DNA of 64,000 nt, from NCBI GenBank assembly GCA_050084515.1, contig CM114271.1, positions 25,482,001 through 25,546,000 of the forward strand, written 5' to 3'. The stretch is from Blasia pusilla. Lineage: Eukaryota. The notes under the pieces were generated by a model that searched no databases, was not told the origin of the DNA, and was given only the letters and a program-made list of their open reading frames with translations. Within the stretch, counting starts at the first letter, position 1; each line of letters starts with the position of its first letter. A program made the translations under genes and the position numbers. Positions 4,105 through 59,955 of the stretch are shown here, one piece after another.

Positions 4105-4396
4105 TGTAAGTGGAGTAGGGTTGAAGGCCACAATGAGGGGCCCGACCTCCTTTTCCAAAGGGGGGGGGGGGGTTATTGGAGAACCCCATAAGTACTAGTA
4201 AGGGGGAAGGTCTCCGAGAGTGTTTGGAATCCAAACCCCACTTTGGGCGCCGCGGGGCGGCTCAAGCGTATGGAACGGAACGCGAGTTTGGGGGTTGGGT
4301 TGGAAAACCTGCACCAAGTCCATTGAGGCGATATTAGACATCCCTCTTGGATTTCACGCCGTGACTCAATTACTTGGGTCTCGATTCGGAACTCAC
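4105..4396 (+). mobile_element. Internal fragment of LTR family A
   Basis: Closely matches the reverse complement of ~60591-60880 (tgtaagtggag...gaactcac). ORFs 4220..4444 and 60460..60768 give near-identical peptides. Confidence 0.9.
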
Positions 4397-14993: not shown

Positions 14994-17605
14994 CTAATCG
15001 TTATTGATTTCATGAAAGCCTCGTACGAAGGTCTCTGGAGGTTGAGCACCAGAAAGTTGTAAGCGGCCATTGATCTGCAGTGAGACAACTCCGTCATCAA
15101 ATTTCACAGTCTAAGCATCGTAATAGCCAAAAAAGCAGCTTGCAAATGTGAAAAAGACTTGCCGAGGAGAAACATACGCCTCGAAAAGCAGGAAAGCCAA
15201 CACTTACAGTGAAGTTTGGTACTCCAGTTATTCCCTTCGCGTATTTGCGCATTTCCTCTTGCAGCTGATACAGGCACACGATAAGATCACTTTCGAATCC
15301 TCAACAAATCTGCAATCTACGGTGGGCTATTTATTGAACTGTCTACAGTTGTGCACATAGAACATTCTCAACCTGGGCTCTCTTCTCGTATGTCGAGCAT
15401 CATATTCACCTGCATTCACTCTTTATTGTGTGTACTGGAATATATTGCAAAAACAATGAACTAACCTCGTTCAGCCCAGCGGTTGGATCATCGAGAAGTT
15501 CTTGTGCACCCGTTACTCCCACCTTTTGTGCAGCGCTTAGAAGTACCTGCCTGAAATATTGGCACTTTTAACTGTGATTCTGATGTTTACAATCTAACTT
15601 CGTTGAACTAGGTAGACGCCATGGACCCGGACAATTGTGAAGCACTGCCTCGTGTAATGAGGAGGAATACTAAGTGCGCCAAATTTGTGAATCGGCTTAT
15701 AAATTTAGGGTATTCGAGTCACTAAGAAGACCTTCCCGCCACAGTTATCAGAAAGAGCACTCATCTTTAGGAGGGGAAAGCCCAAGCCGAGCAGCAGCAG
15801 CGTGTATATAGGACTCCAATTAACATACCTATAGCAAGAACTCACCTGTCACCAATATATTTCTCTTCTGTGAAATAGTTGATCATGAGCTCGCCAACTA
15901 GCTCATTCTGCTTGTCAAGTCCTTGGCGCCCAGCCAGCTGGATCAACCGATGGCTATCAAGCGTGTTTCCACTGCATAGATCAAGGAAACGCAACAATTA
16001 TTGGTTCACACATCCCAAGAATACTACTTGTTCGTGAATCCTCATCTGCCAATAGGAACCCTTGCGAGCATTGAGAGACCACCATGAGACTTGCCGCAGA
16101 GCACGTATTTTGGATTTTGTGCCGCCCAGACCTTGTGGAAGGGCTGCACAAAATTCCAACATCCTGAACGAAAGGACATAAGAAGAGGAGTGAAAAGCAG
16201 CTTACGTTTCGCCACCAAGCGAGTATTGCACTCCCAGATCTGCGAACAACTGTAAGAACAATTTCTGAATGAGTTCGATTATACTAGAAAATCCGCATAC
16301 ATCTAGGGAAGTAGGCGCCCAAACTATGTTGCAGTCAGTTTCAGACAAACCATGAATACTTATGACCTTGTTGATTGAGATCACACATACCTTTGACATG
16401 CGATCCAGCATCGGCTTCATACGTGCTTCACCAAATTTTTCTTTATAGTACTGCAACTTATTCACTCCTTCATTTGGCGCACTGGGGTTCAACATATAAG
16501 GGTGCCATTTGACCTGAACTCGGACCGTTAAAGTCAATAAAGAGTATGAAGTACAAAAATTCTAATAACATCCATGTCTCCTTCCTCGGACCCTAAAGCA
16601 TTTGCCATTTTTCTTGTGTAGAAGAGGTGATTTTTGCCAGAAATTAAAACAGGACTTTGAATACGTTGCTCAAAACACAACCCAGATCGATCGTTTTTCC
16701 CGTCATGAGAATCTTCCAAAAAATATATTGCTAGGAGCCACGACCAAGCCGCCCTCGAACCCAGACAATAGAATTGATTAAATAAAGCACTCTGATTGTG
16801 AAGGTACCACGGTGGCTCCTAATTCTTCCGGAATTGTTTAGTGTTCTATGGTCCGACTTGCCAAGTCGCCACGGAATTGTTCAGATAAGCAGCCGACGTC
16901 AAGCTAATGCAGAGAATAGGATTGCTTAAATACACCACTCTAATGGGATATTTTAAATGTACCATTTTCATTGTAAGGTAAGAACATGGCTCCTAATTCT
17001 GCCGGGATTGTTTCACGTTCTATGTTCCTACTCACTAAGTCGCAATGGAATTCTTCGAACAAGCAGCCGACGCCAAGCTAATGCAGACGATAGGATTGCT
17101 CAAATACATCACTCTAATTGTAAAGTTACCAACGTGGCTCCTACTTCCGGAATTGTTTCGTCTTCTATGTTCCGACTTACTAAGTCGCCATGGAATTGTT
17201 CAGATGATCAGCTAAGCTAATTGAGACAATAGGATTGTTTAAATAAACCATTCTAATTGCAACGTATGAACATGGCTCCTAATTCTTCCCGTATTGTTTC
17301 ATGTTCTATGTTCCTACTCACTAAGTCGACATGCAATTCTTCAAACAAGCAGCCGACACCAAGCTAATGCAGACAATGGGATTGTTCAAATCTACCACTC
17401 TAATTGTTAAGGTACCAACATGGCTCCTAGTACTCAACATGGCTCACAACTTGAAACCTGGACTGGCGGTTCAGAGAACAAGTACCTCAAAGTCATAGAA
17501 ATCTTTGCAAGACTCCATTGCCTTCTCCAGATACTTTTTCCCAATGAAGCACCATGGACAAACTGTGTCTGAGACAATATCGATCCGTATAACCTTTTTG
17601 CCCAT
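14994..17605 (-). CDS. DsbA-like thioredoxin-fold oxidoreductase (FrnE subfamily), ~211 aa
   Basis: 7 GT-AG exons: 17605-17486, 16513-16391, 16249-16206, 15971-15846, 15550-15466, 15264-15208, 15074-14994 (636 nt). IDIVSDTVCPWCFIGK (CxxC), WHPYMLNP, GNTLDSHRL, cis-Pro GITGVPNFTING, LSGAQPPETF. Confidence 0.93.
16788..17430. repeat. Tandem array of ~4.3 units of ~140-175 bp in intron 1 of the DsbA-like gene
   Basis: Anchor tggctcct recurs at 16813, 16987, 17135, 17273, 17421. Shared blocks include ttctatg, aagtcg, aagctaat and ggattg. Confidence 0.93.
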
Positions 17606-18338: not shown

Positions 18339-18377
18339 TTGTTACTGTATAACCCTTGAAGGGTTATATACTAACAA
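18339..18377 (-). other. 39-nt hairpin, candidate 3' terminal stem-loop of Helitron copy 1
   Basis: ttgtta-c-tgtataaccctt-g-aagggttatata-c-taacaa. On the minus strand it is followed ~19 nt later by CTAG|T (18319-18316). Confidence 0.55.
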
Positions 18378-19195
18378 GTATGAGGCCCTAAGCCGTGTAG
18401 AAAAATATTGTTGCTGGATTGGAATAGGCGGCGAGAATTAGAGTGAACATAGGCAGATTAGAATCATGGGTATGCTATGGTACTCAAATAAAGTGGTGTA
18501 TTTTGATAGTGGGGTACCATATGTAATTGGTTTATTATTAACAAGAACAGATTAATAGGCAGGACAAAGTCACATGAAGTCAAAGGTAAAAATAATGTTG
18601 TTTAAAGTTTAGTAGGAAGTTCACTATTGAGTTATATATAATGTTATGAGTGAAAGGGAGTTAGATGCATAGTAAAAATGCAACGAAGAGATGATCATAT
18701 GTAGGGGTAAATGTGGGTGCGAACATTTTGGTGTGCACTTTATACTCTAGGTTGAAATTTTTAGAGATGCAAATGAAGTGATGGCATTAAGTGGGGTAGG
18801 ATGAAATCATCTATATGTGAGAGTGCTGCAAATTGTGTGTTTGTTCTAAGGTTGTGGGGCATACATCGAAAGTCAGGTACTAGGTACTGAAAACACCTAC
18901 TCAAGATCAGGTTAACTTAGCTACGGCACAAATAAAATGTACTACGACAGGAATTAAACATGTGGTTGGGATGGGACATGTAATAAGTATAAACATAAGC
19001 TGAAACAAAAACAAGAAGTAGTCATACAAATATTGAGACATAGTGAAACAAGGTGTAGCGAAGTAGATATATAAAAATTTTGGCAGTATACAAGTAACTA
19101 ACAAGTATGAGACAATGAGACTCCATGTTGAAAATTTTTAGAAATGCAAATACACAAGTCGATACGATGTGCACTAAAGTATAAAAATCTGTAAT

Positions 19196-20220
19196 CTACA
19201 ATAGATTGTTCATATCCAAAAGTGCCTGGAGGGCCGAAAGCTCAGCAACAACAGTTGCATTATCGGGGCAGTTATCCAGAATGTATTTGCCTAAGCTAAG
19301 AACCCGGACAGAAATGGCACTGAGTTGTTCATTGAGCTTTCCAACCATAGTGATTGCATCATACTCAATCTGGTCGAGATATCCCAACACATCAACCAAT
19401 GCCTTGTAGCGCACTTCAGACTAAGTCAATTGAGATTTCGCAGAGTCAATAGCCTGGAGTGTTGCATCAAAAATATGAAGTGGAATGCCTGGGACACGAC
19501 TCATATATACCAACATAGTGTCGGTAACTATTCCCACGTGCATCAACTGCTCCTTTCATCTTCTTGTTTTGGTGCCTGTGGATAGAAGTGGTGGTAGTTT
19601 TCAACGATGTACAGTAATCGCTAATTGTCGAGTGGGCAACCTACGTCCATTTCTCCACATTACAATCTAAGCATAGAATATAACTATAATTGCTGATGAA
19701 GTATAGGAAACATTATGAAGCAGTGAAAGAATGTAAAAAACGTAAATGCAGATACAAATAGTAAAAAGTGGCGACAATAGATTATATGGTGAATTGATAG
19801 AGTAAGAATGGTGGTGTTGTATCAATTGTGGAGGATATAATCACAATGCACATACACTCTTAGTATATTATTGTCATTAAGAAGTGTTCATGAGATGGAA
19901 AAACTTGTATTACAGCACAAAACTGCGACAACCCATAAGCAGGGAACAGTAAGAGACAAAATTGTACTTTTAGATGGAGTCTTAGTCGACAAAATTTAAA
20001 CTGACTTAGGCTTGAGTCTTCATAACGCAAGTGATCTAACGTAAAATGCTAGGTCGGTATAAGTCAATGACACAACAAAGTGTGGTATTGTTGTTGTTGT
20101 GGCAACAACTTCTGTGTATTCGCATTATGGGTTGCTCCGCCATTAAAGCAAGAAACTTGACAAGGCATTAAAAAATAGGCAAAGCAATAAGTACATGAGA
20201 AAATAAGGAGAAGAAGATAA
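19196..20220 (-). pseudogene. Helitron accessory gene B remnant (predicted helical protein)
   Basis: HIFDATLQAIDSAKSQLT*SEVRYKALVDVLGYLDQIEYDAITMVGKLNEQL aligns without gaps to the translation of ~41938-42093 in copy 2. Confidence 0.5.
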
Positions 20221-20222
20221 AG

Positions 20223-21041
20223 TGTCGCGACCCTCATAACCAAACAAACAGCAAGCAAATGTCAAGCGAAACATCAAAACTTTAGTGGGCTCACACTACG
20301 ATGATTGCGCTTTGGAGAGGTCTCTTGGAAAAGTCCAAGAGACAAAACGCACATTAGAGTTTGTGCGTTTTATGCATTTAAGGTCGCGATCAGAAAACCG
20401 CGACCAAACGTGAACCAAGACTTGAGATGAGTTGAATCTAGGAAGATTGGTTTCCAAAGAGGTGAGAACCAGATTTGGAACGCGACTAGCGTTTGGGGAT
20501 TTAGTCCCAAGATGCATTTGGGACAAGTAAGGTGGCATTGGAAATCTTATGCAAAGATAATTGCAACCCACCAAATATCTTAGAGAACGCTTAAGTAGAG
20601 GTTCAGATATTTTCCGAAAACAACGGTAAGAGGAGTTTGGTTGAGGGCCAAAATGAGGGGCCCAAGTGTCTTTCCCCAAAGTTAGGGGGAGGGCGGAGAT
20701 GCCCATAAGTACTAGTAAAGGGGAGTGTCTCCAAGTATTCTTGGAACCCAAACCCCACTTTAAGCGCCAAGCGGTATCTCAAGGGCACGGGATAGAACGG
20801 GAGTTTGGCATTGGAACTCGAAACCTTGTAAGACTTGCCTGTATTATAAACTGCGAAACTAGGAAGATTGATCTTGATGAGAGGCCGAGTCGAGAACTCT
20901 AAAAGTTAGAATGATGATTGATCCAGACCCGACTAACGTGAGTGTGTGTTTGGGTGCAAATCAGCATTGAGAGTCTATCCTACTAAACGCACGCTTCGGC
21001 AAAACTAAAGATTTACGTTTAAGGAGAGTATACGTACGACA
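20223..21041 (+). mobile_element. Solo LTR, family A (internal ~190-bp deletion)
   Basis: TGTCGCGACC...TACGACA termini; perfect 5-bp TSD TAAAG (20218-20222 and 21042-21046); homologous to 38118-39128. Confidence 0.93.
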
Positions 21042-21049
21042 TAAAGTGT

Positions 21050-22030
21050 AATACATTGTGGATTACAAAGCAGTGATACTTGGACTCTGGTGATTTAAGT
21101 ACACTTGCGCTTTTTTGGAGATTATGGGAGTGGATGTCCATCATAGGAGGGGCTATTACTTTGGAAATGGACAGAGCTAGATCCAGTGGGAGGATGACCC
21201 TCAGAGTTGAATGCGTCGTCAGGATTGTGGATGGCTTGAGAAGTGTTGTGTTGATTGGCATTTGGTAACTCTGAGATTATCCCTCTTCTTTAGTTGTCTT
21301 AAAGTGAGAAAATAGGTGTGATGCCTTAGCAGAGATTAGGTCCACCAGGATATTAAGAGGGAGCTTCATGATAACTCTCAACTCTTGAAATTGATCAAGA
21401 TTTACTCCACCTGTAAGCCGTGTAAAATGGGCAGTTGTCTGTTGCCTTGTGAGTTCCAACTCATTGAACGGAACCCCTTTGTGAACCATGACCTCCTTCT
21501 GGATACATGATTGCACGAAGAATGCAAATAGAAATTAGATGTAGTATAACACAGAAAAGACAAGAACAAAAAATGTAATTGGTAAAACAATAAGTGTAGG
21601 GAATTATCCGTAGCAAGTGGCTATTTTTTGAGTTCTCTGAAGGACGCCACCTAGGCTTTCCTCAGGATAATAAGTCGGCTCATTTTTCGGCTTGAGATAT
21701 CGCCACCATTGTAGGATTGATCTAAGCCTAAGCTATTAGCATACCTCAACTGCGCATCAGTTGGAGGAACCACTTAGGGGCGGTTTTCGTGAGGTAGATC
21801 GGGCATATCATTTAAAATCATCTCGAAAAATTCAACGTAGGACCTTGGTACCTAAGAGCACTGTAGTCAATAATAGAGCATAACATTTGTAATATCTAAG
21901 AGCAAAATTTGCTATGCACAAACTTGAGTAGCTTGTTGACCTCGTTGGTCATCCCGATTCGGTACTGGTTTTGTTGTGTTTAGAGCATGCTCGTGCTTTG
22001 ATCCATCTCCAGTTGCCATACTAGTGTAAA
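21050..22030 (-). pseudogene. Helitron accessory gene A remnant (DUF3072-like repeats)
   Basis: PPTDAQLRYANSLGL...ISSRKMSRLI, IQKEVMVHKGVPFNELELTRQQTT and LVDLISAKASHLF, homologous to 40472-41025. Confidence 0.65.
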
Positions 22031-22074
22031 ATTTCGGTTGGACATAGTCAATTAATAAAGTGAATGCAAATATA

Positions 22075-25000
22075 CTATGTTTGAGTGAACACATGAAAAT
22101 TTGAAGAGCATAGGGACCCTAAAATGCACAATTGAGATGTATTCTTAACCCTAGAGAGCATACCATATACGAGGCCAGGTGCAAAAGCCAATTTTTATTA
22201 CCAACAAGCATCTCCCATCAATTGTAAGGCCTTGACTTTTATGGCCAGTCCTAGCGTAGCCAAGGACGATAGGAAATGTCTTCTTATGGTATTTCTAGTT
22301 TGGACCAAAGCGCAAGGTTAAGAAGTTTGTGCGCGTGACACTGATGATCTTGCTATTGGAATGTAGCTTGACAACAATAGCTACAATCTGGTCGGCAACA
22401 TAAATGCATTCAATAACAGTGACAAAGGCATCGTTGACTGCCTTATTAGTGATGTCAATACTTGAAGTTAATCGCACCTTGCAGCCAAGGGCTAGATAGT
22501 GAATTTGATGGAAATTGTTGTCCTCAAGCCATTGATGAAATTGTGGTATCACTGGGTGCATCACAAGAAACATGCATAGGAAAATTTTCAGCACAACCAT
22601 TGTCTTCTTAGTGCAATCAAGTTGAAAAGTTGCACATCGGGACGATGAGAACAAATGATCTGTGTATCCTCATGTACAAAGTCAATAGCACTCTTTTCAT
22701 CCACAAAGCAGTGGGCCAGATGTAAGTTTATTTCATCTTGGCTCGGTCTTGTAACCCTAACGCGTAACAAAAAATTGAGGAATGAAGGGTCACCACTATG
22801 CCTTCTTTCTATCGATTTTTGATATTTAGTCATAGCATCGTAAAAAGGTGAGGATGAGATGTGACATAGTAAGCAAAGTTAAGATGATTTATGATGACAC
22901 ACTAAGGGGAGTTGAGAAAGATCACCCACCAATGTAAGGAGTTTCTCTGAAAAGGGATTCAAGTTTGGCTATGAAGATACTTAATGTAACCTCTTAACAA
23001 CAATTTCCCATAAACAGGGTGTGAGCATAGAACACTCGTCTATAACTACAACCTTGGATGTCTTAAGCCGGATGTACTGATCAGAGGTAGTGTGCATAGA
23101 TGGGAGATACCCCTTAATCGGTATAGCAAAGGAAGAGTGAACAATAACGACACTAACATGCAAGCGTACAGCATCAATAGTTGTGGTGGCAGTGAAGAGT
23201 GAGTTGACAAAAATAGAAGTCCAATATTTTTGCATGAAATGCATAAAGAATGTCTTACCATGCTGACTTGTCAACATGATGAGACCGGATCTGAGAGTTT
23301 AAATGACGTGAAGAAGACTTACTTGCTGTGAATTGAGGGGACTGGTAGATGTAGCAACCTGGGAGGGATAGTCTACTCTGATAGAACCTATAGTCTGGTT
23401 GATCTGTGAAGAACACATTTTAGAGGAAATTTGTAACTGCAGTTGTGAGCGAATCAAGTCTAAAGCTTTGGATATGCTTTCCCTTGCATGAACTTCAACC
23501 CATATATTGGCGATTGCGTGCTCTCTGATCTCATCTACAATTTATGATTAGTCTGTAAGTATACCACAAAATATACACTCATCGAGATAAGACACTAAAC
23601 AAGTTTGCCTCAGACCTGAAAGAAACATTTTGCAATAAGGTAGTGTAGAAGAATTCATTCCATTGGTGCAAGGGATTAAATTATGTGAACTAGACTAGAC
23701 GATCAAGTTAATTTGTAGATGAGGCTACCAAGCAAGTCGTGGCCGAGAAATAAAATGCCTTACTAATTTTGCTATGTGTTTAAAGAATCTCATAGCATGA
23801 CCATAGCTGAAGAAAAAAAGGTTAATGTAGATAGGGAATCTGGCTGATGATAATACAATATTGTTGGGTGTATGCAAAGAACTGTAGTATTTTTATAAAG
23901 ATGAGTTCTCCTATGCACAGGGCTAGAATCAATATACTCAACAGACGGGGATCTAGATATAATAGGAATCTTGAGAGATGTGAGTGTTGCTTCTGTGGAT
24001 GACACAGTTCTATTTAGTACAAGTCCAGATATCAATTTTAGTCTAACTTCATTTATGACTTCAAGCCCTAAACACCTAATCCGCTGCGAGCTGATACGGC
24101 CCAATTCTTGGCCGTATCAAGAATTTGGGACTTAGATAGTATATAATTACTAAAGAAGGTTTTTAGTCTCGTGTGAAACAAGACTGCGCTCTTGACTGGA
24201 GCGTCCCTCCACCAGAAGTTAGGATTAAACCTTTGTACTAAAGGCTCGATGTCGCTGATCTCTTGCCATCTTGTGTTAGATACTTTGTCAGAGACAAGGG
24301 TAAGGAACATATTAGGCATCCCCCATTTAGCGATCATGGTTTTCCATTCTCTTAGGTGACGACGATGCTACGATGGCCTTTCTAGCATGTGGGCACTGAA
24401 ACTATACCTAGAAAGCCATGAATAAATTTCTTCGTTCAACATATCAATGTTATTGGGTTTTAGTTGCTCAACCTCTTTATTGAGGATACATCTGTAGCTT
24501 GAAGATGTTAAGCTAATAGATTGTTGCAATTGATGCATGATGAGTATATGTGGTTTATAAAGTGTGAAAACAGTGAACAACTCTCTAACTTGGTTGCGCA
24601 TATAGTCAATAAAGGATGACTAAACTGTGAAGTATCCCCTCATGTAGTTAAAAAGGAATGGAAAGATCCTTGTTTCAATGGTGAGACGAAAATCTGGTGA
24701 GATCCCATACCGGTCACTAAGAAAGTGATTCCTTGATTGGGCAGCATCTCTGAAAAACACACTTCTATTGTGGAAGATATCATAAGATTTACGCCTTTTC
24801 ATCGACAAGGAGTACTTGACATCTTGAAGAACATTAAGTTCTGCGCTATACGGGTCGGCTACCATACTATGAGTAAGCTGACCTTTATTTTATGATGCCT
24901 TAAGTATGGCCCTCAACTAAGGATGAAGGTAGAACTACAAGACCACATTGAGGATGAGGAAGTTCAATCAATGGCATATATTGTAGATATAGCTCGCTTA

Positions 25001-25450
25001 CCTACATATTAACCAATAGAACTTTTTTGACCTACCTGTAAATGAGGTTAGGTTGTAAAGGGGTTGCATCACAGGCGTTCCAGGATATCAATGGGCAATC
25101 GATAAGGGATTCTACCCGAAAAAGACTCTATGAAAGCCAATGTACTAAGCTTCAATACCCAACCTAGAATCAACAAGAGAGAGCATCTAAAGGTGTAAGG
25201 GATTTATTTCTAACACATCTCAAATATACGCTCGTGTCATATAAACATTACATTCAGTGCTCCCGCCGCTTGTTGCACAATGGTACGTGGCAAATGTAAA
25301 AGCAACCACGCGTTGGAATGATGTAGTTGATCATGTATCCATTACACAAGGCATACGGAGGGTAAATATGTGAGGTAATGATTGTCATCCCTGAATGCGC
25401 GGAATGGTAACATACATACCCACAACAGCTGGAACACTTCATTTGGTTAA
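22075..25450 (-). pseudogene. Helitron Rep-PIF1 helicase remnant, copy 1 (HUH/Y2 core deleted)
   Basis: LTIETRIFPFLF; MIAKWGMPNMFLTLVSDKVSNTRWQEI (Rep motif I); LNRTVSSTEATL; degenerate Walker A (HGKTFF); VIDECSML; LALGCKVRLTSSID; TFPIVLGYARTGHKSQG; YGMLSRV. Confidence 0.9.
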
Positions 25451-25464
25451 TTAGTGATATTTTA

Positions 25465-25890
25465 CATTTTTGGCAAATATCTCAACCTCTGCTTAAGCAT
25501 TTTATGAGATCTTTGGTGCATTGAAATCACCTTTTCCTAAGCTTTCCAACGCCATCTTACATATCCCAAACACATCTTGAGACTAAACATCATGGTCCAA
25601 AATAAAGTCAAAATCCCCAAACACTAGTTGCGTTCCAAATCTTGTTCTCACCTCTTTGGCAACCAACCTTCCTAGACTCAACTCATCTCAAGTCTTTGTT
25701 CACATTTGGTCCAGGTTTCCTAGTTGCAACCATAAACTCATGAAACACAAAAACTCTATTGCGTGTTTCGTCTCTTGGAATTTTCCAACAGACCCCTCCA
25801 AATCGCAATCCTCGCAGCGTAAACCCACTAAAGTTTTGATGTTTCGATTGGCGTTTGTTTGGTGTTCGTTTGGTTATGAGGGTCGTGACA
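25465..25890 (-). mobile_element. 5' part of a family A LTR inserted in Helitron copy 1
   Basis: Minus strand begins TGTCACGACCCTCATAACCAAAC and follows the 38118 LTR for ~425 bp, then is truncated. Confidence 0.88.
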
Positions 25891-32809: not shown

Positions 32810-35800
32810 CACAAGTGATATTTAAATTTTTTTATTACGGCCCCAGCTTAGAGCCCTTAAAATGCGATTCGCTTGGAGGTTGGTGCAGAACCAAATAGTT
32901 TCTGCATTTGCACCAGGATGAACCAACGACTCATCTTAGTGACATGTCGTAAGATCATTGGCGTATTCTATATAGGGTTATGCTTTCGCCGCCGTTTTGG
33001 TAAGCCTCGCGGGTTCGTATTCAATATTTCTTGTGAACCCATCGAGCGTCGAGTTGTACTAACGTTGAACTCTATGTATTCAAGACTCTGTATGGAAGTC
33101 TCCAATGCAATGAATGAGGTCTAGCTCCGTTGCTACCCACTTCGGTTGTGGATTTCATGTACACGAATTATCGTCGATACAACCATTCAATGTCAACCTA
33201 TCAATTTCACATGTTTACTATGCGCTAGCCATTGTATTTGGCAACGATCCTCTCCACAATGTATATTACCCATTAGGGCTTTAGCTTGTGTCACAAGGAA
33301 TTCAATTATGAGCTAACAATCATATGTGAATGTAAGCTTGGATATTCATGGAGCCTCTGCGTATATATACCGTTTTGGTGCCCAATATGAGCATGTTGTA
33401 TCGCTTGCTTGGTTGCTTGACCTATTTCGAGCTTTGTCATTACACATTCTAGTTAGACGTAATGTCTTTCTTATGCTCAAGTTGTTAACATCCCCTTCAA
33501 CCGCACCTTGTACTTCATTGTAGATTGTATCAGAGTTACGACAGAATCCACTTGGTGTTTGGATGTATTCGTGAAGAGCCATTTTATTACTATTTAAACA
33601 TCCAACATCATTGTAATCAGCAATGTCACCAACATCACCAACCATTTTTTTGTGTCAGACTGTATCACAACATTACCTGATGAGGGTCTCCACCCTCGAT
33701 TTGATTTAGTTCAGTTGTTTATTAGACTATTTGGTCAAAGCCTTAAACACATCCGCCATACAGATACTCTGTGGCGGTTCTCCAGCGACATTTTTTGTTT
33801 CCTTTTCCTCACATATTCATGGTAGATAATTACAATTAATTTCTTCAGCCTCCATGATCCACGGATCGTAGCTTGCAAGGTTCTATACTCTATTTACGCA
33901 TTCATCCAACCGCACTATGTTTGATAGCACATAAGCTTCCTTAGTCTCCTGATTGCTTTGCACTTGGATTCTTATTTGCTCCACCAAAGTTCTTCCGTCA
34001 AACATTCTGTCCTCAAATCCTTCTCAATACGGATTTTTCCCCTTTGTTAAGTTTGATTGGACCTATTATCTTTGGTATGTGCTACCTCTGAACACTTCAC
34101 CTTTGTAGAATAGTCTCAATTTTGTCAAATTTTGTACTGCCAATAAGTATGTTTGTTGGATTATATATGGATTTCTTGCTGGCATGTGATGATATTCCAA
34201 TAGTTTATTGTAATGTTCACGCTTGTTCCTAAAGGTAATGTTAGTGTCTTTAACATCTTTAGTGTGGTGTTGCATCAGAGTCCCATCGGCAAGCTTCACT
34301 TCCAGGACCAGACCGTTTGGACACATAGCTTCCAGGTATGTCGAGAGCTTATGATTCATTAACTTCGTCACATCTCACAATAAGCAAACGAATTCGTATG
34401 AAGAGGCTCGCTGCACCAAAAAGATGTTTAGGTAGACAGCCAAATTGCCCAATTTGATATGACATAGAAGTACTCATGGACGAGTGGGTATCACTACGCT
34501 GATCATTTTTTGGTTCGATGCAATGATGTGGTATGTGCGGGTTTGTTCATTCAGGAAACTCATCCCGCCTTAAGTTTCAATTCGTAGCTTCTATTTTCTA
34601 TCCATCTTATGCACTTTGCAACGCTTTTATGATAGACTTCATAATTCCACGTAGTGGATTCCACTACGAGAGTAGTCGGTGTTCTTCCACAGCTAAAATT
34701 GAGGCATTCAATGTATATATGACCCCAGCATGTATATAAGGCATTTTGTCGTGTAACCCACTCTATTTACAACTCCTATCCTTGATCGATTCTAGAGTAG
34801 GGATAACCTCCAAATACAATGGATTCCATAATGGTTTTTTTACAGTCAAAAGTTTATTAGATAACCCTTTGGTACACTGGAATATGACCACTTACAAATA
34901 TGAGAATGTTGCTGCTATATACGGTCAAGTTTGACGTATAATGCTTGTAAACTTGCATATAAATCCACTCTACAAGGATTGTTTAATACTGATTGAACTC
35001 CCAAGTCCTTCATGTGGTTTGGTAATTTTACCTCTGTTGACAAGATTTTCAAAGCCTCACAGGACAAGGGTCTTGTGACACACACAATGAACATTGATCC
35101 ATATAAATGTGATCTGAATATCATTCATGACATTCAATATTCTATTCCTGTAAAAAAAAAAGGTCAGGATAAATTTTTTATAATGGAAGTATGTATTGCA
35201 GACAACGATCATCTCTGCGTACCAACCTCATAACTGACTTTTGGGGGATTGAGTGATTATAGAAGGCTCACATTGGAGACTAGCATATTTCCATTTTTGT
35301 TTCCTTACCTTCGTGGATATTTCAAAGGAAACATTTCTTTTGTTGATTATATGAAAGGAAGAGCTTCACAGTTATTCTCTGTATTTACCCTTTACAAACC
35401 TTATTTACTTTTGATGTATAAATTAAAACAATCGATAGCACTTGCAACCTCAAAAAAATCATGCATTCTCAACAAGGAATTAGACACACTCCGTATCACA
35501 AATCGTGAGATGTCAGAGGATGACCTATTCCATACCTTACCAAAGCATTCGTTAAGTCCTCAAATTTTGGGCAGCCCCGATTGGCATAGAAGGCACTAAA
35601 AGATCTTAAAGCTATGGTGAACAAATGGGGAATGCCCCATTTTTTTCTGACATCGACATTAGATGAGTTATTTGAAACAAGGTGATAGGAAAACTCACAG
35701 CTTGAGTTATTACTCAAAAAAATGAACCCTAGTTTTGTTTGGAGAGATGCACCAGCAGAGTATGACGTCCTATTCCATGTCAGGTTGCACTCATTTTTTT

Positions 35801-36867
35801 AAAATTATTTTTGGTGGTCACCAAATATTGGGCCAGGTTCTACATTATGTAATAAGGTATGAATTAAAAGGTTGAGGTAGCTTACATAGTCATCTTATTT
35901 TATGGTGTGTTGAAAGTGGTGTTGATATTACGACCTCCGAGATAGCCTCCTTTGTCCCTGCCCCCATAGACAATACCACAAATTCTTTTATACACCATGT
36001 TGATAAGTCTATTGATGAACAGTTATTGAATCTAGTTTTGCATAAACAATTACACGTTTGCAAGCCTTTTGCATGCTCCCATGTTAGCAAGTCCATGAAC
36101 ACTCGATTCTGCAAACTAGGTTTCTATGCAAATACTTATCCTCTCTTAACTCCTTCAGTAGATCTAGAAAACCATAAATGGAGATATTACAGACCTTCAT
36201 GGCTTGACAAGGATGTTGTTCCAAACCACCCAATTTTCCTTATTCTTTGGGCTGCACATATGAATTTGCAGCTAGTGACAAATGTAGATTGGTCTTTTTA
36301 TCTAATAAAATATGCATTGAAAAGTGAACCACTTGGTGCCCTAAACATTGATACCGAGACAACAATGAATCTTGGTCTTGAAGGTTTGGAAGATATCCAA
36401 CTCAAATTGGTTTCTGGTGTTGTTTCAAATAGATCCGTTTGTTCAACAGAGGCAACCCTCTCTTCTCTACAAATTCCTGTTATAACTCGTTCCAACTCAC
36501 TGACATATATAGATTTCAATCCACCTTCAAGAAGGACTTCTCCGTATCGTAAGTCATCACTTGTTTGCCTCCATCCCATTCAGATTTACTGCCATAGATC
36601 TGCTAGCTTATCACACATTACATTTACTGATTATTGGGAAAATTTTGAAGTGGCAAAAATAGAAAAGAAGACAAAAGATTTTTTTGGCATGAATTCACTT
36701 GATGGATTTGTATTCAGACGATCTAAACTTGTAAGGTTTACAAACTTTAGCCTTTTGCATCACCTGGATGAATTTTTTTATAATTTGCTCTTATCGATGA
36801 CAGCCTCCACGTCAGAGTCTCAGCTTACATCAATGTGCGGTAAGAGTTGGACTTATTTGCACGAATG

Positions 36868-37490
36868 TGTCACGACTGTTAGGATATATCGGTGTGATCT
36901 AGCAAATCGTCTGCAAGAGTAGTGGAGGACATGCCCAAGAGGTCAAGGATGACATGTTGAGGCCCCGGGAAACCCGAGAGAGCAAGTTTCCCCTTCGTTT
37001 CGGCTCATTTGGAGCCAGATAGAGAAACTTACTATTTCAGGTAAGTTTCCATATTGGGGATAGTTGACTTTCCACTTTGGGAAGTGGCCCTTGACCCGCT
37101 ACAGCATGTCAAGAGCCAAGGAGGTGATTTGCGAGCATAGGTTACCGTTGAGAGTGCTTGGGAGGGGGAATATACCTCCAAGAGAGAGTGCTTGAGAGTT
37201 CATTCTCTCTTTGTTGAACCTCTTCGCATAAGGCGGCGGAGCTACGGTCCCTTGCCTTGTGAGTGCAACCCAAGCCTCTCATTAGGAGAGTGGGTTTGGT
37301 TTGACATGAGACAGAGTGCACACCTTTGAGAGCTATGGTGTGAGATGGTGTTGAGAGAGATTGGATCTTACTTTATTGGAGATATTTTGGTACTTCTGGC
37401 CTCTGTGTATGGATGCCATGAGTTAGCATGGGATCGTGTGTGTTTGATGACAGCGGTGTATGTTGTGTAACAATGTGTATGCGCATGACA
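36868..37490 (+). mobile_element. Solo LTR, family B (623 bp)
   Basis: TGTCACG...GCATGACA with 4-bp TSD AATG. Removing it restores the Helitron frame YLHECVHRNI. Homologous to the reverse complement of 59192-59825. Confidence 0.93.
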
Positions 37491-38117
37491 AATGTGTTCA
37501 TAGAAATATAGTTAGCTCTATTGATAACATTCAGGATCTAGTTAGTGATTATGCAACTAAAAATATGTGGAGTCATATATAGGCTACTAAAACTATTACC
37601 AAAATGGATGCTTTGCTAACTGAGGCAAAGTCCTCAAAATCTATATTATTACTACCGGTTCCTGATCCTTGTCAAAAAATAACATTATCCATTGATTTTG
37701 GAAGTAGTAGTAGAAGCATCTTCTCACCCTCAAACTTAACAGCAGACCAGTTTGGCATGTTTTTGATATTGAAGACACCGGAAAAAGGAATCCATTTGAT
37801 AAGTGGAGCTCCAGGGACAGGTAAGTCTTACTTCATGAATTATATGGCAACTTATTGGCAGCAACTAGGTGTGTGTGTGTAATAATGCTAATTGCTACTA
37901 GATGAGTCGCAACAGTCAGACTAAATCCATTTGCAACCACTCTCCACTCTACATTCAACATCCACTGAAAGATGATCTACCATGTCTTCTGTCAACATCT
38001 GATGTGTTTCAGAGAATAAGAAACACAGATGTTGTGAGTATTGACAAATGTTCAATGATGACATCTAAATTACTACAGATTGTTGCAATGCGACTTACTG
38101 ATATTTCACCCACACGT

Positions 38118-39128
38118 TGTCGCGACCTTCATAACCAAACAACACCAAATAGGTGCCAAGCGGATCATCAGAATTCAAGTGGACTCACGCTGCGATGTTT
38201 GCGCTTTGGAGAGGAGTTTGGAAAGGTCTCTTGGAAAAGTCCAAGAGACGAAACGCGGAACAAAGTTGTGCATTTCATGCGTTAGTGGTTGCGACCAAGA
38301 AACCTAGACCAAACGCGAGCCAAGACTTGAGATGAGTTGAGTCTTGGAAGGTTGGTTGCCAAGGAGGTGAGAACCAGTTTGGGGAATTTGACTGTGTTTT
38401 GGACCATAACGTTTAGCCCCAAGATGCATTCGGGACAAGTAAGGACGCGTTGGAAATCTTATTTTGAGATGCTTCCAATGCACCAAAGAACTTAGCAAAC
38501 GCATAAGTAAAAACTAAGATATTGGCCAAAAACGACTATGAGAGCAATCGGGTCGAGGGCCAATTGGAGAGGCCCGGGTGTCTTTCCCTAAAGGTAGGGG
38601 GACGCCGGAGATCCCCAAAAGTACTAGTAAGGGAGGAGTCTCTCCAAGATGTCTTGGAAGATGAATCTCCACTTTGAGCGCCAAACGATGTCTTAGAGGC
38701 ACAGGATGGAACGGGAGTTTGGCATTGGAACTCAAAACCTAAACCTGATCCAAGGGAGTGGACTTTGTACGCCACACTTGGATTCCAACCCGAGATTCAC
38801 TTTGTGCGAGTCTCGGTTAGGGACTCATTGGATGTCCATCTGACAGTTGGAATCGCCAAGCGCGAAACGCCGTTTGAGGTTCTTGAACCAACCATAAAGT
38901 CTGTCCCAAGTCTTGCAAGACTTGCCCATGTTGTAAACCGCGAAACTAGGAAGATTGAGCTTGATGAGAGACCAAGACGAGAACTCAAAAAGTTAGCCCG
39001 CCGATTGATCCAAGAACCAACTAACCAGAGTGTGTGTTTGGATGCAGATCAGTGTTGAGAGCGTGACCTACTAAATGCACGCTTCCGCAACAACAAGACT
39101 AACGTTCAAGGAGAGTAAGCGCACGACA
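38118..39128 (+). mobile_element. Solo LTR, family A (1011 bp)
   Basis: TGTCGCGACC...GCACGACA; 5-bp TSD CACGT/CATGT (one CpG transition); splits the helicase. Confidence 0.93.
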
Positions 39129-40074
39129 CATGTGGTCATAATCCATTTGACAATAAGGTTGTTGTCCTTCTTGGAGATCTGTGTCAGCTTCTACCAGTTT
39201 GCACCCACTCCTGTATTAGTGGATGCAAACATTGTAACACATCTTGTTCCCCTTTTTTGACACGTATGTCTAAGCATTATCTCACTACTGCTATGAGGCA
39301 AGCTCTTGATCCAACATTTTTGTCATTTCTTAACTCCATTCATCTTAGATTTCCAACTTAATAGGCTATTGATAATTGTTTGGGTATATGCATGGTTAGC
39401 ACTAACCAAGCATTGGACTTCATTAACAACACAACCATAGTAATATGCTCTCACATAGTTGACGTGAAGTTGTTCAACACTATTTGTTTACGCCGATTTT
39501 TGGGTGAAGAAAGTATAATATTAGTCTTTGTTGATTTGGATGCATGTCATGTAGAGGATTTGCAGAGTTGGATTCAGGAGGGTGACTTCCACAAAATTCC
39601 ATTTCTAGCTATAGGTTGTAAAGTTTTTCTCATTGCAAACCTCAATGTAAGTAAAGGTGCAACAAATGGATGCCTAAGAATTGTAAAGGAAATATTGGTG
39701 TATAACATTTGCATTAAAAAAAATGTTGTTCAATTAACTACTAATGATTCTATCATAAAAGTTAGCAGATCTGCATCTGAGTTTATATACACAAAGAACA
39801 TAGAAAAGTATTATAAACGTACTTTTCCATTCATGCTCTCTTATGCTATAACAAGTCATAAATCTCAAGGTAGCATTGTGCCTAGCACATGCCTTGTGGT
39901 ATTGAAGAGTGCATTCACTTATGGTTTAACATATGTTGTGTTGTCTAGAGTTTCATGCAGATCAAACTTGAGAATTTTAGGCAAACTAGCCCCATCAGAT
40001 TTCTTGGTACATGGTCAAGAGCCAGCAAGTTAAGTCTAACAACCAACAGTACTTGAATCTTTCAGATTTCATCA

Positions 40075-41220
40075 ATGACAACCAATGGAAAGTCTCTAGC
40101 ACGTCCTCTTTACTTCTCTGACAATGATGACAAGACTAATCATATTTCAAGTGTCTGTGGACCTGGGAGTTCATCCAGCTACTAATTATTAGGCACCAAA
40201 GATGTCCAATCGACTACAAGTCAGCTTCAAAATTCCACATTGGATAAGCTTTTAGCCAGTATACGACGGCCTTCAATAACAAGTCTTCCTACTTGTATAG
40301 TAAGCATTCCTATCAGATCTCCTACCTTTTTCATTTTGTACAGTTCAACCTTACTTCCTTTCCAATTTCAGTAATCCTTTTTTCTTGTCAATTTACTTCA
40401 TCCACACTACTGGGAGTAGCCAACATGCCCCTTCCTATCTTCATTTAGTGTCTTGTCTTTGTATTTTGCAGGCCCCACCACAGAGTGATGAGTTTGCTAA
40501 ACTATTGCTACAAGAGATTCCTAGAGACACAGAGCCACAACAAGTTGTGCTCACATAGCCTTCTTTGTTGCAAATGAGATACGCTAACAATATGGGTATC
40601 CTTCCCACATGGCAAGATGGCATTACAAAGAGGGGAATTTTTCAAGATGATAGATAACCAAAAGTCATGGGATGCAATGTTCAGGGATGAACACAATGCT
40701 CCTCCAACAAGTGGTAAGAGTTGTTAACTTCTTCTTTTTTGCTTGTTGATTCCATTCTTGTGAAACTGCAGCTTAAACTCTCTCTGTCATGTATTGCAAG
40801 AATTCAGAAGGAAGCTTTGGAATTGAAAGGAATACAATTCAATGAACAAAATCTTACAAAAGCTCAGACCACTAAGGAGCTTGCTCCAGTGATAGAGAGT
40901 ATCAGGCTTCCACAACTTACAGAACTCAGACACATTTTTTTATACCCATGGATGTTATTATAGACTTAACATCAGCCCAAGCAATGATTCTGCTTTAAAA
41001 AATACATGAAGCAAAAAGAAATGGCTTGTTGCTGAATATCCAGCCACACAATGTGATTAATCTTGATGACTTAGAAGATCTTGGTCCAGACACAAAGCCC
41101 ATTAGTTCTCCTTTACAACCTCGTACCAATGATTATACTGTTAGACTTAGTTCACAGTCGGCACCATTCACTACATCTGATTCGTTTCTATCACCAACCA
41201 AATGTCAGAGAGAATTTTGA
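40075..41220 (+). pseudogene. Helitron accessory gene A remnant (spliced; three DUF3072-like repeats)
   Basis: Acceptor ttttgcag at ~40471 and donor gtaag at ~40714. Peptides PSLLQMRYANNMGI...ITK, PPTSA*..LSCIARIQKEALELKGIQFNEQNLTKAQTT and DLTSAQAMILL. Confidence 0.65.
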
Positions 41221-41499
41221 TTTATTCCATGATAGTAATGTAGTAAAGCTCTTTCGGAGTGCTATGACATACCAATGTTTGTTTCTCATAGTGTTTCGTG
41301 TTAAGTTTTTTGAAATCATCTGAATCAGTTCATATATTTTCATTTTCAACTTGATCAAATTCACATTCAATTTCTTGGATCTCATTTTGAGTCCTGGAGT
41401 TCGATAATTATAATGGCCTCAACCTTGTATTGAGTTCAGCTAGGCTATGTCTTTTTCCTACTGGGTAGTTTCACTACCCAGTTCTTCTGCTGATAGATT

Positions 41500-42270
41500 T
41501 AATCATGTCCGTTCACGACTAAGGCTGACCTAATCTCGAACATATAAATGCTTGATGCGCCTACGCTTGTATCACTTTTGTGCCACTCTTTTTGTGATTG
41601 CCGTCATCTGTTCGTCAGCAGCTATGTTTGCTTTTCAGTCGCGCAATCTGTAGAAGCCATGGTACTTCCTCTAGTCAATGTGAGTCTTCTTTGTCCGACT
41701 TTCATTTGATTCAATTTATTTCCTTAACATTACAATGTGATGTCTTCACTTTTTATTGGATTTATTTTTTTTCTGTTTAGAACGTGCAGGGTTAGGAGGC
41801 GGATGCCCAATCCACGCAGCAAGAGCACAATCATTCCATCGATGCGGCTACGCGGCAACATTCATCTTCAAGTGTTGCAGGTTCTAGCAGCCCTCCTGCC
41901 TCGTGAAAGAGAAGATGGACTCAAGATTTGGAGTTCACATATAGGTCGTTATTTATATGCCTTCACAAGCTAGGTAGAGGCGGAGTTGAGGAATTTGTGA
42001 AACTCCACAAAGGCACTTGTCGAAATCCTTGACAAGACCCCTTCACTTAGCAAAGAGACTCTAGCAGTTGTAAATCATGTTAGAAGAGATTTACCTTGGA
42101 TGAGGATTAGTTCCATGGTATATCTTTATGACACAGTAACTCAGAATTTTGATCCGAACACAAGAGCGCAGCACTCTTGCATGGATACTTTGGTAAGTTT
42201 GCATAAATCTAGGATCTCATATGGACAGTTAAGCTTTTTGTACAGTTGGACTTCTTTCATCACAGCGTAA
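41500..42270 (+). pseudogene. Helitron accessory gene B remnant
   Basis: HIGRYLYAFTS*VEAELRNL*NSTKALVEILDKTPSLSKETLAVVNHVRRDL gives a gapless match to the copy 1 peptide at ~19320-19480. Confidence 0.5.
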
Positions 42271-45200
42271 TACAACGTGAGCATTTCATTGATCGGTTAC
42301 ATGTTGTTGTGATGCACCACACATTTCTGTTGTGTCGATTATGTTCATAATTGTCACCACATTATTTGTAGAGAGAGGTTTAACCGTACTCTTCCTTCAT
42401 TGTATGCTCGTATCCTTGTTCTAATGCTGTTCAGATTGGGAATTATGTACCGGCTGCTACCTGTTAGTTTGTTGGGAGCTTTTATCTCCTCGATTGCTTT
42501 TCTCTGGTGTTCAATTTTTTTATCTACTCTATACCCAGCCTTTCCTCAAAGAACCACCTTACACACATATGTGCTTTCTATCAATCCTATTACTAGATCT
42601 GAATGCAGAGCTTGCACCAGCCTTGTAGTTACATCTGTGATTATTATCGTGACAAGGCAAGAAACATCACAAGAGTTTCCTGTTGTAACCCGTTTGAATC
42701 ATCTTCATTGTTAGCAATTCAGATCACTGTCTTCATTCATTAAACTCAAATCTATTAAGCACAACACCACTCTAACAACTCTTCAGTAATTCGAAAATAG
42801 ACATGGCCACTTAAACTCATTTATGTGTCTATCAGCAACAACAAAAATGGTGCCGTTCCATCTTTGATCTTTCACATGAATCAACAACGCTGCATTTTTC
42901 TACCTAAAACTCTTTCGAAAAGACAAACTGCATTACTTTGTAATTACAGGTTCATCCACTTAGGATCACTAAACATGATGACCTACGTATGATATGAACT
43001 TCTTTTCATCCAAAAAATTAGATGCAAAATCCATCACGAGACCCCCACACTAGTTATCTCTCTATAATTCAACTCCCTCTCTCAAAATTACACATGTCCA
43101 CGTCATAGGAACCCTCGGGGGAAAAATGATCTCTAAAAGCTCCTATGATGTCCCTGTCCTCTTAATTATGTTGATATGTGAAAAAAATACATAAATTTAA
43201 TGTATCACAGCGGGACTGCGTCCCATAGTTAGCGGTGGGGCTCTCTCATTCTTTCTCTCTTTCTGCAGACCGGCGGTCGTACTGACAAGCACAGCCAATA
43301 ACTCCGGCACTAAATGATTAGTTAGCATCCGAAGGATGCGCTCGCTCGTTTTCGCGGAGCAAAGCAGAGCGAGAGGACAGGCGTCGTTTCGTGAGCGTGT
43401 ACGCCGTCTACGCATTCGTAGCGCGACGTGTGTTCGGCATACGGACATGGCGGGATCGCGCGGGGTTGCAGCTGAAGCGGACACGTCGAAGGGTGTGAAG
43501 AGTCCGGCGAGCGGCGAGCGAGGAGAAAAATGGCGCTCTGCCGAATGCGCTCGACTCGTGGCGGCCCGGACGACTCGCGTGTGAGTGAACCCTGGAGCCG
43601 ACTGACAGCGCAACATCGGAGCTCCAATAGTCGACTGTGGTAGCCATTAGAGTTCTTTCTCGCGCGCCGGGATGTTCCTGCCCTTTTATTGTAAGCAACG
43701 GGTTTCCATAGGTTTCAGCGTGCCCAGACAAATGCGTTTCAGGCCCGTTTGCCCTAAACGCTAATGCTAAAGGTACATAGTTTTCTAAGTGTTACTAATA
43801 ATATGGTGATTTTAGTAGTCGTCGAATCGGCCTCTTTTGTATCGCGATGAATTTCCCATCCTTTTCGTATATATATTTTTATTTTTATTTTTATTTTTAT
43901 TTTGGAGCGAAACGAACCGACTGTCGACGTGCCGACCGACGACTCCCATGAGCCGTTCCGTGTCCTTGATGGCTGGCGGGCTGACAAAGACCAGACGGAG
44001 TGACTTTGAAAGCCCTCTCCTCCTACTCCGACGAGTTGATGATCAGTTAAAACCTGAATCGTCCGATCCACCTCTGTCCTCCAGTTTCACGTGAGACGTC
44101 TCCGTACACGAAGAGAGAGAGAAGTAGAGATAGACTACAGTAAGGACTCCGGAGTAATGCGTGCACGGTTGGAAACATGGCGATCTTCTGGTGGAGGACT
44201 AAGTTAGCGGTCGATACGGACGGAGGACGGACAGACGGAGAGAGTGAATGTGTCTGTGCACTATGAAGAGCAGTGTCAGGTCTGCTGATCGCTGTAACTA
44301 GGTTCGGTGGGTGGAACCGGGCTGGGCTCTGCCAGCAGTGTGGACATCTCTCGAGAAAAGGAGTAATTGCCAGCCCTTGATGAGCTCCATGAGACCTTCA
44401 CTTGAATGCGTGTCTGGTGCGGATTGCTTTGGCGCAACAAACAAACCGCGGAATGAGAGCTCGTGCTGCACTGCTGGTGGCATTGTGGTAATTGATCACC
44501 TTCGCTACGACCTCCCACTAGCGGAAGAAGCGACAGCTCGATTTCCATTCTCACCGATCTCCTCCTGGCACCGGATGCCAGAAGATAACTGCAGCGCATT
44601 ACGCGATCGTACTATTTTCCGCAGCCACACCTCACTCGGCTAATCTAGGACCCCAGCGAGAGTCCGCCAGGCCCACGTTTGATGAACATAGCCACTCCTT
44701 ATTAAAACGCTCGCGCCAACATTCTCGGGCGAGGCAGGCGTACCACTGTATTCGCCCGCCTTGCACATACATCCATGTCCCGTGTGCAATTGCATTCCTC
44801 GACAACTCCGCTAGGTGCGCTTGAATGGCTGGCGTATTCTGAAATACTCTGGGCGACATCGTCTGGAATCCTCGGTCCGCGGATTCCCACCGCTCCTTCT
44901 TTTATCCTCGAGGATTTGGTGTCAGCTTGGCTTCCCGGGCCACACGGGAAAGTAAAGATCTGCTTGTGTTTACATCTCCGTACTTGTGAGGGATAGTTTG
45001 CCTTGGAATTAAATAATCCATGGGCACTACCTTAAGTGTATGCCTGTAACCCTGCGGAATTTAAGAGAGGATTTATCGTGCACCCGAAAAGAGTTGCGAG
45101 CGACTTGATTACCAACGACAATGGGGGGAATTGTGGTCGACAGAGGAAGCAGGAGCAGTGGATTTTCAGAATCAAGTTTCGTTCGACGGTACTGTGACTC

Positions 45201-49800: not shown

Positions 49801-50488
49801 GGCAAACCCAGGAATCATTGTCAACCGCGGACACTCTAACTTCCGTCCTGTGCACACGGTGGGAGACCTTTCATGGAGCTCTTCACAACGCTTCTCAAAT
49901 TTAAGCCAAGCCGCAAAAACCAGCTTTTCATGCACTGTGATAGAATGTTGCCGGGCCGAGCGCAAACTGCGACGCAACATCTTGCTTTCACCCAAACCAC
50001 GAAACACAAATGACTGCTCCATATACAAGCGCGCCTTATCGTCATCTGCTGCAAGCTCTAGCTCCTCATGAATCTCGGCCAGAGATTCCACGTAGTCCAC
50101 CGGCCTGAAGTAAGGCTGTAGAGTGGGATCCACCAGTTGGGCGACAGTGCAACTGCATCACCACAAGGCAAACTCAGAACAGAAGTCAACACGATCTACT
50201 TTCAAACCAATCTGAGACTCGCTGGTGCTCCACATTGCACTATCTGCGACGATACGAGAGGTACCTGGTATGACTGCCCTCACCTACACCGGACTTAAAA
50301 CGGGAAAACAAGAGAAAGAAAGAAAACAGAAGAATCTCGCAGACAGACCTTGTGGAGGGAGCAGACTCGGTGTAAGTTGTCTTGCAGTGCTTTCCGTGCC
50401 CGGCTCCCACCGATATGCTGGTTTCTAATGAGTTCACTCCGTGCACATGGCTATTCTTAAATCCCTCGGCCATCCGCAAACTTCTCAT
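46864..50488 (-). CDS. ETO1: ETHYLENE OVERPRODUCER 1 / ETO1-like BTB-TPR protein, ~904 aa
   Basis: Exons 50488-50349, 50152-48404, 48155-47864, 47767-47458, 47087-46864 (2715 nt, in frame). N-terminus MRSLRMAEG; PVDYVESLA; BTB region (CNRQRIARLSGPFHAMLNG..FANRFCCE); TPRs; WMQLYDHWSSVDDIGSLAVVHQML; LNCPKAAMRSLR. Last intron is GC-AG. Confidence 0.93.
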
Positions 50489-59825: not shown

Positions 59826-59827
59826 AC

Positions 59828-59955
59828 TGTCGTGCGCATACACATTGCTACACAACATACACCGTTGTCACCAAACACACACACAAATACGCACGATCCC
59901 ATGCTAACTCATGGCATCCAAACAATGAGACAAGAAGTACCAAAATATCTCCAAT
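59828..59955 (-). repeat. Partial LTR B (3' 128 bp) directly after the PPT
   Basis: Duplicates 59192-~59320; separated from the full LTR by 2 nt. Confidence 0.88.

Follow-up and report, generated by a model that had tools for sequence, protein, structure and literature searches.

The 64,000 nucleotides of Blasia pusilla DNA analysed here (the window) contain two degenerate Helitron-like elements, each with a second gene, gene A, lying directly behind its helicase. The question that this locus raises is whether gene A belongs to the elements or is host DNA that they carry, and what its product might do. What the HLE2-type lineage carries is almost certainly a three-exon gene with a product of about 300 amino acids, which stands directly behind an apparently intronless RepHel (HUH Rep plus Pif1 helicase), was under purifying selection and has been co-inherited through at least three deeply split families. 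The explanation as a whole, in which gene A belongs to the element as an accessory gene, is expressed by splicing and acts as a helper, is evenly balanced between right and wrong.

Two elements and the gene behind their helicases

Once oriented, copy 1 (family I) and copy 2 (family II) are colinear, with 26-60% identity per block in RepHel and 32-38% in gene A (TBLASTX). The gene A regions of the two copies are homologous three-exon genes, at 22019-21095 on the minus strand and 40075-41220 on the plus strand (Table 1). An earlier, sequence-only reading of this DNA had proposed an accessory gene conserved behind the helicase across diverged Helitron families, and the proposal holds and now extends to at least three families. 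The extent given for the gene in copy 1, 21277..21860, was too short. The claim that the two copies agree in position and intron placement stands. The same strand had also been claimed, which is not the case: copy 1 is on the minus and copy 2 on the plus strand, and only the orientation relative to the helicase is common. The three pairs of peptides quoted from the two copies, DLISAKAS and DLTSAQAM among them, are all present in the sequence.

TBLASTX of 21277-21860 against 40472-41025, the comparison proposed in that reading, yields one significant match over the IQKE.. exon (E=4e-11, 27/75 identical), so that the outcome named there as a refutation did not arise. At the DNA level, BLASTN aligns no more than 16/17 nt (E=0.003), in line with the little DNA identity noted before. 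The PPTDAQ/PSLLQM pair is missing from the narrow TBLASTX and scores 24 bits in a wider comparison of the two copies. Profiles built from family-I rows only find copy 2 exon 2 at E=7e-5 (20 rows of exon 2) and copy 2 exon 3 at E=5e-10 (23 rows of exon 3), and they match nothing in the 64-kb window beyond the two copies. Likeness confined to the protein level is not proof of an element gene, however, because the same picture would result if diverged host paralogues had been captured twice.

Both window copies of gene A are pseudogenes and the elements are dead relics. Exon 2 of copy 1 has three in-frame stops and is followed by AT, not GT, at the donor; exon 3 is preceded by AT, not AG, at the acceptor and contains a frameshift near 21280 and one more stop. 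The 5' part of RepHel in copy 1 is interrupted by a repeat insertion at 25467-25890, and the 5' end of this copy was searched for and not found. Copy 2 spans about 32834-43055. Since the closest relatives found are only 72% identical to copy 1 and 89% identical to copy 2, both families look long inactive in the Blasia pusilla genome, in which no intact copy of gene A was seen.

Table 1. Positions in the window of the parts of the two elements
Feature	Position	Strand	Remarks
Copy 1, 3' terminus	18373..18389	-	subterminal inverted repeat, CTTG, TT
Copy 1, exon B, second downstream coding exon (family I)	19211..19501	-	helical, heptad-like; profile E=4e-29, 103 matches
Solo-LTR-like insertion in copy 1, downstream of gene A	20223..21041	.	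TG...CA; 5-bp duplication TAAAG
Copy 1, gene A exon 3	21095..21506	-	second half of core, linker, C-terminal SPKKRKCT-stop; profile E=1e-39
Copy 1, gene A exon 2	21608..21851	-	first half of helical core; profile E=2e-38
Copy 1, exon 1 donor	21923	-	GT, phase 0; GT in 26/27 aligned family-I loci
Copy 1, gene A exon 1	21924..22019	-	ATG at 22019; low-complexity; shortened by internal deletion
Copy 1, spacer, helicase stop to gene A ATG	22020..22074	-	55 nt; acceptor-like TAG ends one base before ATG
Copy 1, RepHel (HUH Rep + Pif1 helicase)	22075..25436	-	degenerate; TBLASTX colinear with copy 2
Copy 2, 5' terminus	32834..32844	+	follows T run; 5' motif as in family I; homology to sister copy begins at 32832
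Copy 2, RepHel	34527..40033	+	split by insertions at ~36870-37490 and 38118-39127
Copy 2, gene A exon 1	40075..40299	+	ATG 41 nt past helicase stop; CAG 9 nt before ATG
Copy 2, gene A exon 2	40472..40713	+	one stop, one frameshift
Copy 2, gene A exon 3	40800..41220	+	acceptor AA; frameshift and stop; family end SPTKR..EF-stop
Copy 2, 3' terminus	43030..43055	+	degenerate inverted repeat, CTAG, TT

One LTR-like repeat recurs, in versions 68-91% identical, at 20223-21041 and 25467-25890 (copy 1), 38118-39127 (copy 2), 60286-61294 and 4105-4396, and at 60.3-61.3 kb it adjoins RT-RNase H and integrase-zinc fragments. The insertion at about 36870-37490 in RepHel of copy 2 is related to 59191-59955 and 1346-1541, and a relative of it occupies a different place in a sister copy. 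About 770 nt past the 3' end of copy 1 begins a spliced host gene (17605 to about 15400, minus strand), whose start resembles a DSBA-like thioredoxin (E=4.5e-5) and whose first intron contains tandem repeats (16762-17429). Two long ORFs, of 251 amino acids (TPR repeats) and 585 amino acids (no Pfam match), are located at 47426-50157 on the minus strand.

The elements are HLE2/Helitron2-like, a placement given by their short asymmetric inverted ends and the GRGS motif of Rep. Sister copies, colinear with both window copies, match Helitron_like_N (E=5e-16 to 6e-18) and PIF1 (E=6e-15) in Pfam. Rep motif 2 reads IRYELQ[GN]RGS in the four elements matched and in others, the IRYELQGRGS form having been seen, and the F/Y-x-R signature upstream of it is partly present, as LIR. 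A serine after RG in this motif marks Helentron-type proteins, according to PMC4067079. The 5' ends read ATTAYGGCCCC after T runs; the 3' ends are GGGCCGCATWCTTG-TT in family I and GGGGCCGCCACACTAG-TT in family II. In the terminal inverted repeats, 5' ATTAYGGCCCCT pairs with 3' AGGGCCGCATA. The 16-base 3' motif of family I has 117 exact matches in the genome, against none for its reversed control.

As described in PMC3627910 and PMC11417382, HLE2/Helitron2 elements likewise have a RepHel without AP endonuclease, short asymmetric inverted repeats, T-rich flanks and the serine in Rep motif 2. Helitron2 elements insert between T and T; here T runs precede most 5' ends and TT is constant at the 3' end, TT having been part of the search pattern. 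The 3' repeat of Helitron2, in the description of PMC3627910, is positioned 20-30 bp from the end and is followed by a hairpin, whereas here about 6 nt separate it from the end and no hairpin is apparent beyond it; six nucleotides past the inverted repeat the flanks are random (30 loci). Helitron2 also has a 5' hairpin that uses the 5' repeat; in family I a 4-bp CCCT/AGGG stem was spotted by eye. The canonical Helitron, HLE1, has a 5' TC, a 3' hairpin plus CTRR and an A^T target, whereas the present elements start with ATTAYGGCCCC and family I ends in CTTG-TT; family II, unlike family I, does end in CTAG-TT. The Helentron has an AP endonuclease fused after the helicase, whereas here the helicase ORF is closed by a stop and no Exo_endo_phos match is found in gene A. 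The RepHel ORFs of sister copies are 295-481 amino acids long, and RepHel appears, from the DNA, to be intronless. HLE2 is known from Sphagnum, Ceratodon and Physcomitrium, and 20 captured Pfam domains are known (PMC11417382).

In some family-I elements the 5' terminal motif recurs about 800-900 nt inside (L033:2689 and 3496; L146). At G000:C7:12103769-12106736 (L144, L057) a 5' end and exon B are 2.7 kb apart, and this is probably an internally deleted non-autonomous derivative.

Linkage to RepHel and selection

Gene A occurs in at least three diverged families. A family-I query gave at least 141 matches, from 136 of the 1395 candidates scored, and a query with a foreign homologue at least 156 (150 of 926 candidates scored), mostly in new places and with the third family included. 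In 40 of the 48 testable loci (five more had too little DNA) the helicase ends 227-459 bp ahead of exon 2, and the helicase is upstream in 20/25 loci picked with the foreign query. Three of the eight exceptions have RepHel pieces further upstream and five have no RepHel within 10 kb. The best preserved of these five, the one examined in detail, is a frameshifted, 5'-truncated element with exon B, and another of the five is 89% identical to copy 2, with about 17 kb separating its parts. No intact free-standing gene A was present among the loci examined. The trees of helicase and gene A have their main clades in common, with Mantel r=0.56 for 24 family-I loci and r=0.80 for 52 copies (0/2000 permutations). 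Identity between families is 0.28-0.36 in the core of gene A and 0.37-0.44 in the helicase.

The core exons are under purifying selection comparable to that on the helicase. Identity at codon positions 1, 2 and 3 is 0.74, 0.83 and 0.46 in exon 2 and 0.68, 0.81 and 0.41 in the exon 3 core (29 loci each); the helicase-end control has 0.75, 0.80 and 0.46 (20 loci), and both introns are flat at 0.36-0.45. Family II has the same bias as family I. Pooled dN/dS among genomic copies, a calculation that the sequence-only reading had suggested, is rough because synonymous sites are near saturation and copy pairs, having shared ancestry, are not independent; it amounts to 0.10 for exon 2, 0.25 for the exon 3 tail, 0.45 for exon 1 and 0.17 for the helicase. 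For the exon 3 core it is undefined, as synonymous sites are saturated (pN 0.24 vs pS 0.77). The controls give 0.64-0.80 for frame 0 of the introns and 0.78-2.2 when the core exons are read in shifted or reverse frames. Copy 1 compared with other copies has dN/dS of 0.07-0.18 in the 12 of 27 pairs that are unsaturated. The codon-position bias, the dN/dS values, the fixed position, the trees matching those of the helicase and the lack of an intact free-standing copy among the loci examined thus support the earlier suggestion of a selected element gene as opposed to a recent host capture.

PMC11417382 portrays the extra domains of Helitrons, namely RPA, OTU, endonuclease and other Pfam domains, as patchy and probably not essential. 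Unlike these, gene A has the same place, the same introns and helicase-level constraint across families whose helicases are about 40% identical.

Structure of gene A and its product

The gene structure was derived from alignments of 30 family-I and 17 family-II loci, and the counts of splice sites, starts and stops omit loci unaligned at the given site. Both families have three exons and the same two introns, one in phase 0 before the core and one in phase 1 within PxTG-IQKE. In family I the ATG is present in 27/27 loci, GT at the first donor in 26/27 and at the second in 25/30, and AG at the first acceptor in 18/28 and at the second in 19/29. The stop codon is at one position in 23/25 loci (TGA in 14, TAA in 6 and TAG in 3). 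A T|GT near the end of exon 3 was considered as a donor and rejected; it is a Cys codon (TGT/TGC) before the real stop.

The product has a low-complexity N-terminus, an all-helical core of about 155 residues, a linker and a C-terminal SPxKRK motif. This motif occurs in 16/25 loci, compared with 1/25 for the control, and an SP-basic motif is found in seven of the ten homologues checked. We take the SPxKRK end to be, probably, a nuclear signal beside a CDK site. The pI of the core ranges from 6.1 to 10.1, so that the core is not consistently basic and DNA binding by it is unsupported. The models contain helices and no strands; that of exon 3 has five helices and a pLDDT of 84.5. Fold searches gave no match, the best Z for the exon 3 model being 4.3, with no viral match. 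The fold rows obtained for the exon 2+3 model are artefactual long-helix matches, and that model contains translated intron. The idea of three repeats of a DUF3072-like motif in the core found no support for repeat 1, and repeats 2 and 3 are weakly alike (E=0.016, 0/40 column shuffles as high). A homodimer prediction of the P0001 core in which the alignment was not used scored 0.00, which is evidence neither way.

Gene A has no match above cut-off in Pfam, PHROGs or PDB sequences, and it is a new protein family, set apart by the absent Pfam, PHROG, PDB and fold matches. Without a Pfam match, it is not among the Pfam domains that HELIANO (PMC11417382) lists as captured. A profile search gave 21 proteins, 18 of them plausible; two fish repeat proteins and one tandem-repeat protein were discarded as spurious. 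In a word-indexed protein search the profile found two proteins, both already known, and the read-through ORF nothing; among longer proteins, a weak test, nothing was found either. The named homologues are R1sor_004433, 009880, 007730, 005165 and 015997 of the liverwort Riccia sorocarpa, all annotated as 'hypothetical'. Two Riccia homologues on different contigs, R1sor_004433 and R1sor_009880, are identical at 193/196 positions over their shared part, and one is fused to an endonuclease-type fragment; both observations fit mobile DNA. The spliced homologues P0001 and P0002 continue across the predicted exon junction, and it is there that most of the short matches start or stop, which suggests that the same intron may be present elsewhere. 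A metagenome scan for the DNA context of P0001 confirmed no relative.

A further exon, exon B (about 160 codons, heptad-like), follows gene A at a distance of about 600-850 nt in most family-I loci (L053-L082). Its phase-0 acceptor is conserved, it lacks an ATG, and it has 103 matches. Family I also has a conserved donor 15-20 nt past the gene A stop, and exon 1 joined to exon B would be in phase. No counterpart of exon B was detectable in family II, which may have a downstream exon of its own at about 41790-42195 (plus strand), with acceptor-like and donor-like ends and no detectable relation to exon B. Seven near-identical exon B matches within 275 kb, at G000:C6:2474288-2749627, suggest a tandem segmental duplication.

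Expression and possible function

The spacer between the helicase stop and the gene A ATG, 55 nt in copy 1 and 41 nt in copy 2, would be too short to hold a promoter. Family I has AG at -3/-2 of the ATG in 21/27 loci, near the rate of the real acceptors (18/28 and 19/29). The spacer resembles the 3' end of an intron: 60% pyrimidine, it has an AG frequency of 0.024, compared with 0.012-0.025 in introns and 0.064-0.074 in exons. In family II an AG is positioned 9 nt upstream of the ATG in 9/15 loci (two of the 17 were dropped as unaligned). Because of this acceptor-like AG, gene A is probably made by splicing, like TnpA of En/Spm. The A at -3 is, however, compatible with a Kozak context too, which counts against the acceptor reading. 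Ahead of the RepHel ATG, the 30 loci have no conserved leader donor; a perfect one occurs only in two close copies. Two RNA runs compared with copy 2 contributed one 39-nt piece, evidence neither way on expression.

En/Spm produces TnpD and TnpA by alternative splicing (PMC13547354). By analogy, it is fairly probable that gene A is made as a separate protein, its transcript being spliced to an acceptor that precedes the ATG by 0-9 nt, with RepHel and gene A as the alternative outputs of a single unit. TnpA of En/Spm (CACTA) resembles gene A, in the account of PMC13547354, as an accessory beside the transposase, made by alternative splicing or from a tandem gene and modelled as the transposase's partner. 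It belongs to a different superfamily, however, and no link in sequence or fold was found; a shared transcript for gene A is an analogy only.

The function that we infer, tentatively, is that of a putative nuclear helper of RepHel, and we prefer it to an anti-silencing role. One unit would give RepHel and, by alternative splicing, the gene A protein. The protein would enter the nucleus, phosphorylation of the SP site by CDK possibly gating the basic signal, and would there aid transposition, its binding partner being RepHel, the ends of the element or the single strand that is displaced. This nuclear, possibly CDK-gated helper is plausible while falling short of probable. The role proposed is the one that RPA-like genes are thought to fill in HLE1 of seed plants. 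RPA has an OB fold that binds single-stranded DNA, whereas the gene A models are all-helical and gene A has no RPA match in Pfam. Like gene A, the RPA-like second genes of plant HLE1 are described as separate conserved genes downstream of RepHel (PMC11417382).

A rather unlikely alternative, although the strongest, is an anti-silencing or transcriptional regulator that would bind the DNA or chromatin of its own element and, like VANC in VANDAL elements, counter methylation by the host, without acting directly in strand transfer. The same anatomy and the nuclear-signal-like tail would suit such a factor, and anti-silencing factors are among the lineage-restricted accessory genes of plant DNA transposons treated in PMC13547354. 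VANC of the VANDAL Mutator elements is one such gene; no homology between it and gene A was found. Weak bHLH-like fold rows (Z 2.7-4.0) point the same way, but they are at background level. Furthermore, the core identity between families tracks that of the helicase and dN/dS is low, which is less like a fast arms-race factor.

The helper reading has a bolder form, quite unlikely as it stands. Transposition of bryophyte HLE2 would be driven by a two-protein rolling-circle machine, in which the intronless RepHel is placed inside the leader intron of a required, cell-cycle-gated nuclear partner whose core may descend from a prokaryotic tether domain for annealing single-stranded DNA. If true, this would provide a required second factor for a Helitron together with a new protein family.

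That gene A is a spliced C-terminal extension of RepHel, like the endonuclease in Helentrons, is improbable. The spacers in the window are short, and in family II the AG and the ATG share a reading frame and the last helicase codons contain a GT. This GT is, however, part of a Val/Gly codon whose third base is variable, and it is missing in several copies. The ATG is retained in every one of the 27 family-I loci, and a search, weak in itself, found no longer fused homologue. Finally, the AG-to-ATG offsets of 1 nt in family I and 9 nt in family II need different phases, so that an acceptor in the 5'UTR is likelier than a fusion.

It is similarly doubtful that the core is a relic of the C-terminal domain of a phage or plasmid SSAP (Red-beta/Sak/Erf type), which tethers partners on single-stranded DNA. 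For exon 3, the closest Atlas clusters that carry a Pfam family are Sak and ERF (0.79), and the C-terminal domain of lambda Red-beta superimposes with Z 3.3 and an rmsd of 3.2 over 48 residues, at 21% identity, the highest among the matches listed. The Atlas scores are below 0.9, however, the spliced core has no usable Atlas match, no PHROG matches, and hhalign to the Red-beta domain is below significance (E=0.16, probability 0.4%).

A host gene fragment, captured once or several times and passively carried, is highly improbable: Helitrons do capture host fragments (PMC6431247) and gene A has spliceosomal introns whereas RepHel apparently has none, but the purifying selection among copies largely refutes this origin, the trees are congruent, the position is fixed, the best locus without RepHel is a decayed, truncated element, and no named host protein matches. 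An ancient host capture followed by selection is possible and would fall under the preferred reading of an element gene.

An extra gene with introns inside Helitron2 ends has a precedent in Fanzor1 of the Chlamydomonas elements CRe-1,2,3, as PMC3627910 describes them. Fanzor1 is a TnpB-like protein in non-autonomous elements, whereas gene A has no such match and is found in elements of autonomous type. No description of gene A was found in the literature searched; Repbase, Dfam and subscription papers were outside the search, so a consensus entry may exist. Surveys based on Pfam do not see the gene, and in Riccia its homologues have been entered as host genes with the label 'hypothetical'. As a cofactor or regulator of rolling-circle transposition encoded by the element itself, it is a concrete candidate.
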